Positions 15,302-15,690 of a DNA stretch of 21,425 nucleotides are shown here, piece by piece; the stretch's first letter is position 1, and each line of letters opens with the position of its first letter. The notes beneath the pieces are model-generated. The model made no database searches. It was not told the DNA's origin and saw only the letters and a program-made list of their open reading frames with translations. The DNA comes from a virus (Duplodnaviria > Heunggongvirae > Uroviricota > Caudoviricetes), in IMG/VR virus record IMGVR_UViG_2802429219_000008; one strand, 5' to 3'. Both the position numbers and the translations under genes were made by a program.

Positions 15302-15472
15302 TCAAGCTACAGCTTTAAGATTTGTCTGGAATACTTTGTTGCAATGAGGGCAGATCAAAAGAGCACCTTTTTGTACTCTTGAAAAACTGTGTTCTGACTC
15401 TTGGGTGCAGTTTGGGCAGGAACATTTAACGAGATAATTACGGCGTGATTTTGAGTCTTTACGTTCTGACAT
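15302..15472 (-). CDS. C4 zinc-ribbon mini-protein (56 aa)
   Basis: Internal ATG (15470-15472) of ORF 15302..15523(-) with CAGGAAAAG Shine-Dalgarno. MSERKDSKSRRNYLVKCSCPNCTQESEHSFSRVQKGALLICPHCNKVFQTNLKAVA has a CxxC...CxxC ribbon. May correspond to a Qin small zinc-binding protein, not confirmed. Confidence 0.5.
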   Translation of the reverse strand: MSERKDSKSRRNYLVKCSCPNCTQESEHSFSRVQKGALLICPHCNKVFQTNLKAVA

Positions 15473-15690
15473 AGGCTTTTCCTGTATAAATGGCCGTATA
15501 CAGTACACTAAATATGAAAACATATCTCGTATTATTATTTAATATATGATTTTCTTTTAAAATAATTACCCACATTTTTAATGTGTCTGTTTTTTAGCGC
15601 CGTTGAGAACAACGTTTGCTATAAAAACTAACCTATAGACTCCGATCTTTTCAAACATATTGCACCATCTGTGTACATCGGGGTGAGGAT

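Follow-up and report, generated by a model that had tools for sequence, protein, structure and literature searches.

A small gene, ynfU, predicted to encode a zinc ribbon beside the cold-shock genes of a Qin-type prophage

Between the cold-shock gene cspB and the holin gene of a Qin-type lambdoid prophage (IMG/VR record IMGVR_UViG_2802429219_000008, Caudoviricetes; the whole 21,425-nt stretch analysed is referred to as the window), a short open reading frame (ORF) with two CxxC pairs runs against the direction of late transcription. The locus raises the question of whether this ORF encodes a protein and whether such a protein serves the phage whose late operon it opposes. The overall explanation favoured here is that the ORF is ynfU, a translated and independently expressed zinc-ribbon gene carried in a block of cold-shock (csp) cargo genes, with a proposed role at RNA, the ribosome or cold-shock proteins; taken as a whole, this account is considered to be moderately probable.

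Identity, conservation and expression of ynfU

The identification was based on the following two features.

15302-15472, minus strand: ynfU coding sequence (CDS), 56 amino acids plus stop, Cys4 zinc-ribbon protein (CPNC-x18-CPHC); from the ORF list, RefSeq, Pfam, NCBIfam and the ratio of nonsynonymous to synonymous substitution rates (dN/dS)
15480-15483, minus strand: Shine-Dalgarno sequence AGGA, 7 nt 5' of the ATG at 15472; read from the sequence and conserved across about 80 loci

The flagged ORF is almost certainly the already annotated ynfU, a name that the initial annotation of the window had missed together with the consistent csp, and not phage, neighbours of the gene. The gene is rediscovered here and is not new, having been annotated and experimentally validated beforehand. 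The CDS in the closest RefSeq genome corresponds exactly to window positions 15302-15472 on the minus strand and is named "putative zinc-binding protein YnfU". In a megablast comparison of positions 15150-15700 with complete Escherichia coli genomes, 1,653 of 5,426 genomes matched, and every match listed had the ynfU annotation beside "essQ: class II holin family protein". Over its whole length, the protein belongs to Pfam PF23499 (YnfU; 107.7 bits, cutoff 27) and to NCBIfam NF038384 (79.8 bits, cutoff 36). The counterpart in E. coli K-12 MG1655 is b4776, located inside the cryptic prophage Qin; the two proteins are identical at 55 of 56 positions, the sole change being D6N, and the DNA of the K-12 locus is 98% identical to the window over 500 nt.

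The maximal ORF on the minus strand spans 15302-15523 and counts 73 aa from its first ATG. The 56-aa YnfU starts from the internal ATG at 15472 and reads MSERKDSKSRRNYLVKCSCPNCTQESEHSFSRVQKGALLICPHCNKVFQTNLKAVA, with a molecular weight of 6.4 kDa and a pI of 9.4 for the window copy. The 73-aa ORF was rejected as the true CDS: the ATG at 15523 is unconserved and lacks a Shine-Dalgarno sequence, therefore the 56-aa start is correct. The ATG at 15472 and the Shine-Dalgarno sequence CAGGA(A/G) are kept in essentially all loci of a family context survey comprising one genome per species (80 loci), and the good ribosome-binding site pointed out in the initial annotation was thereby confirmed. The same annotation had assigned a 56-aa protein to 15302-15523; the protein and its start were correct, whereas 15523 is the limit of the maximal ORF and the CDS occupies 15302-15472. 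The cysteine motif, described there with a spacing of 17 residues, was determined to be CPNC-x18-CPHC.

YnfU contains cysteines at positions 17, 19, 22, 41 and 44. In the alignment of 24 homologs, C19, C22, C41 and C44 are invariant, and C17 is not. A lack of conservation of these ligands had been named beforehand as a finding that would speak against the zinc-ribbon prediction, and the ligands proved to be conserved. The alignment has 19 invariant residues, these four cysteines of the CPxC knuckles included; the others are P20, P42, K5, L14, S26, E27, H28, S29, F30, R32, Q34, K35, G36, L39 and F48. Membership of the family calls for a single domain of about 52-60 aa in which two CPxC knuckles enclose the SEHSF.RVQKG core; the window protein is of this kind, and none of the invariant knuckle and core residues is missing from it. 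The net charge ranges from +6 to +8 across 67 unique family proteins. The median dN/dS was 0.10 over 966 pairs, with synonymous sites saturated between genera, and the ynfU frame was the sole reading frame open throughout the family. Given the dN/dS and the single open frame, the ynfU feature is far beyond chance.

The protein is also produced. In K-12, ynfU was discovered by ribosome profiling with stalled initiation complexes (Ribo-RET), and YnfU was verified by western blot of a chromosomal sequential peptide affinity (SPA) tag fusion in LB at 37 C, where it topped the newly detected small proteins in abundance (Weaver et al.). In the same study, YnfU alone among the new small proteins had a recognisable motif, the two CPxC zinc knuckles. 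The gene was detected independently by PIRT-seq and in the RiboReport benchmark. YnfU is among the best-expressed of the recently discovered E. coli small proteins, and it is produced in uninduced K-12, where Qin is cryptic. Since the protein was detected in K-12, whose locus is nearly identical, a minus-strand transcript, on which the initial annotation had made its reading depend, must exist. None of the papers found that mention ynfU or b4776 assigned a function, and the gene has been counted among the "dark" genes of E. coli.

Distribution of the family and linkage to cold-shock genes

In sequence searches the YnfU family was confined to Enterobacterales, and a full hidden Markov model (HMM) scan of 1.84 billion cluster representatives resulted in 41 matches at E ≤ 0.001. 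The gene is carried by 8 deposited phage genomes. In phages HannyBb, PhiR63_1 and Klebsiella phage ST13-OXA48phi12.4, the last with a 57% identical copy, ynfU lies divergent and upstream of the holin; in phage PHB10 it was found near the integrase and umuDC, beside a csp pair and not by the lysis genes. A homolog of EssQ, RrrQ or RzpQ was located within 5 kb of ynfU at 11 of the 80 loci and was missing at the other 69. In Klebsiella, Lelliottia, Enterobacter, Yersinia and Citrobacter, several copies of the gene are directly flanked by housekeeping genes. Most ynfU copies across Enterobacterales lie outside prophages; where a phage is only one of several carriers of a broader module, the position of a gene within a prophage can be a deceptive guide to its role.

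The sole recurrent neighbour of ynfU is a gene encoding a cold-shock domain (CSD), in variable orientation. Such a gene was detected within 1 kb at 56 of the loci, and the CSD density within this distance, 5.32 per 10 kb, was 46-fold higher than that at 1-5 kb in the same loci (0.115 per 10 kb). A CspA/B/I-like gene is situated downstream and convergent to ynfU in 38 cases, a CspF-like gene downstream on the same strand in 32 cases, and at least nine ynfU-csp arrangements were distinguished. When the outer flanks of the loci were clustered into 27 distinct neighbourhoods, CSD adjacency was observed for all loci in 17, for some in 4 and for none in 6, i.e. adjacency occurred in 21 of the 27. 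The link is looser in the more distant branch: the order in Hafnia is YnfU, DUF2058 and the CSD gene, and in Cronobacter a pair of a CSD and a YmcF-like gene is 1.9 kb away from ynfU. No nearby CSD gene was found for ynfU in Yersinia, in Serratia or for the second Citrobacter paralog. The ynfU-csp linkage is strong and, because it is weaker or absent in the distant branch, not obligatory. This distribution makes ynfU look like one component of a small, mobile cargo module, ynfU-csp. The linkage is absent from the papers found that mention ynfU; strong and repeatedly rearranged, it provides a concrete and cheaply testable hypothesis and a modest new lead.

A conserved co-oriented operon partner, of the kind sought for a toxin-antitoxin or sigma/anti-sigma pair, was not found at these loci, ynfU being usually a stand-alone gene. 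Small stress-type genes were often observed beside ynfU homologs outside E. coli, namely YnaE (PF27475), YmcF-like (PF23641), MgtS-like (PF22865) and YebO, which hints at small-protein gene islands. In Citrobacter, two paralogs of YnfU have diverged: the first is found in csp or prophage surroundings, and the second, flanked by an MgtS-like gene and prlC, has no CSD gene close to it.

The cargo block, its terminator and the DNA upstream of ynfU

The layout around ynfU in the window is given by four further genes.

11342-12094, plus strand: Q-type antiterminator (quuQ/ydfT), which sets the direction of late transcription; from the annotation
14210-14422, minus strand: cspF, the other CSD gene in the module; from the RefSeq annotation
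14723-14938, plus strand: cspB, the convergent CSD neighbour of ynfU; from the RefSeq annotation and an Rfam cspA thermoregulator match at 14562-15001
15691-15906, plus strand: essQ holin, divergent from ynfU, 218 nt from the ynfU start and the first lysis gene for the late transcript; from the ORF list and the annotation

The gene order in the closest RefSeq genome is Q (ydfT), cspF, cspB, ynfU, essQ, ydfR, rrrQ, rzpQ and cspI, which upholds the initial placement of the ORF on the minus strand between cspB and the holin, opposite to Q and the lysis genes. The interval from Q to the holin is 3.6 kb and carries cspF (minus), cspB (plus) and ynfU (minus). The GC content is 30-40% over 12.0-15.8 kb, compared with 47-53% in the flanking Q and lysis genes. 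It is likely that cspF, cspB and ynfU form an AT-rich cargo (moron) block that was inserted, in a Qin-type lambdoid prophage, after Q and ahead of the holin gene. A tR'-like terminator hairpin is located at 12202-12220 on the plus strand, right after Q. Judged from the gene geometry, the Q-modified late transcript would cross ynfU in antisense, and local transcriptional interference with this transcript may occur; the orientation against the late operon most probably just reflects how the cargo landed.

The essQ-ynfU-cspB-cspF layout of K-12 Qin matches that of the window; in contrast to K-12, the window prophage has about 1.7 kb of additional AT-rich DNA between Q and cspF. Window positions 12095-14200 comprise about 2 kb of AT-rich DNA (GC down to 0.30) with almost no credible ORFs and with a second A/T-flanked hairpin at 13894-13917 on the minus strand. 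In K-12 and in several further Escherichia loci, Q and ynfU lie closer together by 1.7-2.3 kb, which gives the stretch between Q and cspF the look of an insertion. Rfam matches at gathering score were obtained for the DicF small RNA (4245-4296, minus), the sok antitoxin RNA of the hokD locus (9140-9314, plus) and the cspA-type thermoregulator leaders (RF01766) of cspB (14562-15001, plus) and cspI (18017-18448, plus), and these confirm a Qin-type prophage. Past the holin, a ydfR-like ORF (15890-16462, plus) encodes 190 aa, compared with 103 aa for K-12 YdfR, and the nearest RefSeq genome lists it as an incomplete pseudogene; its end is overlapped by an 86-aa ORF (16410-16670, minus), labelled hypothetical protein in RefSeq.

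Independent expression of ynfU was considered with regard to the DNA on both sides of the gene, where three elements were distinguished.

15214-15246, both strands: two-way intrinsic terminator (stem-loop 15220-15239) between the convergent cspB and ynfU, bordered on its two sides by an A-tract and a T-tract; from the terminator scan, folding, an inverted repeat (I2) and conservation
15473-15537, minus strand: conserved stretch, about 65 nt long, that accompanies ynfU on its upstream side; from alignments of unrelated contexts
15531-15561, minus strand: alternative weak, E. coli-specific sigma-70-like -35/-10 pair (TTTAAA-16-AATAAT); from a consensus scan, 9/12 matches

The folding energies of the 15220-15239 hairpin were -20.4 kcal/mol on the minus and -19.2 kcal/mol on the plus strand, with z values of -5.1 and -6.4, respectively, and none of 200 shuffled sequences folded equally well. 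The plus strand has a perfect T-run and passes a simple terminator scan. On the minus strand, i.e. that of ynfU, the tail is TTTAATATT, and the scan is passed just with a shorter stem definition. The bidirectional terminator proposed earlier downstream of ynfU was therefore found on both strands but is asymmetric: on the plus strand it has the classical form, and on that of ynfU it is weaker. A CCCGC...GCGGG hairpin with A-tract and T-tract flanks is also present 64-114 nt past the ynfU stop codon in Citrobacter, Klebsiella, Raoultella and Superficieibacter; the recurrence of the same hairpin with different loops in other genera supports a functional two-way terminator.

Upstream of ynfU, the similarity between loci from unrelated genomic contexts ends about 65 nt before the ATG. 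The conserved block contains an A-rich stretch, a cgAGcTAT box (15522-15529), the sequence GTGTA(t)gGT and a CC.TT...CAGGA leader; inside GTGTA(t)gGT there is a TAnnGT -10-like hexamer, which is TACTGT in the window (15500-15505). By its sequence the block is a probable promoter with a short leader, the -35 element being non-canonical. It was read in this way because no shared RNA structure was detected and the leader folds no better than shuffled sequences (z = -1.2): RNAalifold resulted in no consensus structure for 82 unique upstream sequences. An inverted repeat, CTGTATA/TATACAG, extends over the Shine-Dalgarno sequence but is window-specific and unconserved, and a conserved leader structure was rejected. 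Sigma-70-like sites were no more frequent in the region than in shuffled sequence. The cspA-type 5' untranslated region (RF01766) gave no match on the ynfU leader even at E ≤ 1, and the spacers matched no Rfam family, the sub-threshold matches being all on the terminator hairpin.

Peaks of the RpoH and RpoE holoenzymes were reported for the K-12 essQ/cspB spacer by in-vitro genomic SELEX (systematic evolution of ligands by exponential enrichment) and assigned to essQ (Shimada et al. 2017). At the time of that assignment ynfU was unannotated, and it is an alternative target in this spacer (equivalent to window positions ~15000-15690). The peaks were set aside as evidence on ynfU, their resolution being too low for assignment. 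On the cspB side, about 280 nt separate the end of the gene from the first good terminator (14939-15219, plus), and two strong inverted repeats without a T-run are situated past cspB (14950-14958/14992-15000 and 15011-15028/15031-15048); from the sequence, this stretch may be a long structured 3' untranslated region or another RNA element. A polymorphism in the ynfU/cspB spacer was described for one experimental line of an evolution study.

Candidate roles of YnfU and comparison with known systems

The AlphaFold model of YnfU is a zinc ribbon with strands at residues 14-18, 25-29, 38-40 and 47-49 and a short helix at 30-34; the mean predicted local distance difference test (pLDDT) score was 72.8, and that of the core 77-84. 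Zinc binding is predicted from the Cys4 motif together with this model. Foldseek searches gave nothing significant, either against the PDB (best E = 0.35, with small zinc-ribbon chains of archaeal ribosome structures) or against a viral library (best E = 0.08), and the fold searches point to no more than a generic zinc ribbon.

Two known zinc modules were closest in sequence. The top PDB sequence match was the DNL-type zinc finger of Tim15/Zim17/Hep1 (PDB 2e2z, PF05180), with an E value of 0.012 from the single sequence that improved to 0.006 when a profile was used, and the similarity to Tim15 extends beyond the cysteines (S-x-H, KG, L-I). However, YnfU scored 13.4 bits compared with the PF05180 cutoff of 27, only 9 of 24 YnfU members matched, and the DNL tail is absent, F48 alone being conserved past the second knuckle. 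Membership in the DNL/Tim15 family was rejected on account of the sub-threshold Pfam score, the 9 of 24 members, the missing DNL motif and the absence of Tim15 from the structural matches listed. The N-terminal zinc ribbon of PhnA/YjdM (PF08274; PA0128, PDB 2akl) also has two CxxC knuckles of similar spacing and was matched below threshold by 22 of 24 YnfU family members; a moderate modelling match of YnfU to PA0128 was reported by Weaver et al. In contrast to PhnA, the C-terminal domain is missing from YnfU, and with 22.4 bits (cutoff 30.8) and PDB E values of 0.11-0.12, YnfU falls outside PF08274.

Domain fusions were rejected as a clue to function, as the HMM matches that were inspected turned out to be small proteins standing alone, gene calls of excessive length, zinc-finger proteins with repeats, or apparent chimeras. 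In a 186-aa database protein (P0057), the CspB N-terminal motif ...LVKWFNADK runs directly into the part of YnfU that begins with CSCPNC. With cspB and ynfU being convergent, such a join would require an inversion, unless the protein is a chimera produced in assembly. Apart from this one apparent chimera, no CSD-YnfU fusion was found in the 1.84 billion representatives.

In the mechanism proposed here, YnfU would bind one zinc ion via C19, C22, C41 and C44, and the invariant S26-E-H-S-F-x-R-x-Q-K-G hairpin between the knuckles would, together with the positive charge, dock a conserved cellular partner. The most likely partner would be RNA, the ribosome or a cold-shock protein, and YnfU would act as an accessory factor in an RNA-chaperone and cold-adaptation gene set, alongside the cold-shock proteins. 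Drawn from gene neighbourhood, charge and conservation, this mechanism is put forward as a tentative possibility. The more specific proposal, in which YnfU joins CspB-like or CspF-like proteins as their dedicated partner on RNA or the ribosome and in which ynfU-csp is a mobile RNA-chaperone module that lambdoid prophages acquire and pass to their hosts, is more doubtful.

Four other explanations were weighed. YnfU could be lysogenic-conversion or defence cargo directed at incoming phages or at host envelope and stress pathways, with the csp genes as fellow passengers. The typical moron position between Q and S, the AT-rich composition and the expression in the prophage state agree with this, as do the stress-type neighbours YnaE, YmcF-like, MgtS-like and YebO in other genera. 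However, none of the 5,027 PADLOC defence models matched YnfU at E ≤ 1, and the PHROG matches were weak and all to families of unknown function. Moreover, fellow-passenger status fails to explain an adjacency that persists across rearrangements in 21 neighbourhoods, and the explanation was judged unlikely.

The RNA of ynfU, rather than the protein, might be what matters, if opposing transcription, through collision or cleavage of double-stranded RNA, blocked read-through into the holin and silenced lysis in the lysogen. The geometry permits this: the ynfU transcript would be fully complementary to the late segment 15240-15500 and start about 200 nt from essQ, and the tR'-like terminator after Q implies that late transcripts cross the ynfU region. 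In contrast, the dN/dS of 0.10 at saturated synonymous sites reveals purifying selection on the amino acids, and ynfU is conserved with its upstream block where there is no phage operon to oppose. Interference would be at most a local side effect, and a primary role of the RNA is quite improbable.

The initial annotation had suggested a regulator or an anti-sigma/antitoxin-like factor. Small zinc-binding phage proteins with regulatory roles do exist, P2 Ogr and Mu Com being examples, and the divergent position upstream of the holin is kept in E. coli phages and in the 57% identical Klebsiella phage copy; YnfU might accordingly be a phage regulator (anti-sigma factor, antitoxin-like protein or transcription factor) of late transcription or lysis. 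The distribution opposes such a role: at 69 of the 80 loci no lysis gene comes within 5 kb of ynfU, many copies have housekeeping genes as flanking neighbours, and in PHB10 the gene accompanies the integrase, umuDC and the csp pair instead of lysis genes. Furthermore, the adjacent partner expected of a toxin-antitoxin or sigma/anti-sigma pair is not conserved, no defence model was matched, and the protein is made in uninduced K-12 from a cryptic prophage. The suggested role is unsupported and very unlikely. The least probable of the four is mainly metal handling, i.e. buffering or storing zinc or acting as a redox-sensitive Cys4 switch, which would suit the four invariant cysteines in 56 aa and one preprint that places ynfU with metal-related genes up in lag phase and under hypomagnetic conditions, whereas a modestly abundant protein with a single zinc site would buffer poorly, the invariant non-cysteine surface (SEHSF.R.QKG) and the basic charge favour a macromolecular partner, and, judged by eye, the upstream block has no conserved metal-regulator box. 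Each of these alternatives is disfavoured by the distribution, the selection pattern or the model searches.

The preferred reading, a zinc-ribbon gene expressed on its own within a csp cargo block, can be compared with two known systems. Lambdoid morons are independently transcribed cargo genes of the late region, such as bor, lom and stx. ynfU resembles them in its position between Q and the holin, its AT-rich DNA, its own terminator and promoter-like block, and its expression in the uninduced K-12 lysogen; two characteristics of a moron, the terminator of its own and the deviant composition, are thus found at ynfU. It differs from them in being oriented against the late operon and in being mostly chromosomal and non-phage in other genera, therefore the phage is a carrier and not the home of the family.

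The second comparison, an analogy only, is with the eukaryotic Lin28 and plant cold-shock proteins, in which a CSD and CCHC retroviral-type knuckles are fused in one polypeptide. At the ynfU locus a cold-shock domain is likewise paired with a small zinc module, although the pairing is one of neighbouring genes and YnfU is a separate Cys4 zinc ribbon. If the proposed partnership with the cold-shock proteins were true, YnfU would represent a "split" bacterial counterpart of the eukaryotic proteins that combine a CSD with a zinc module.

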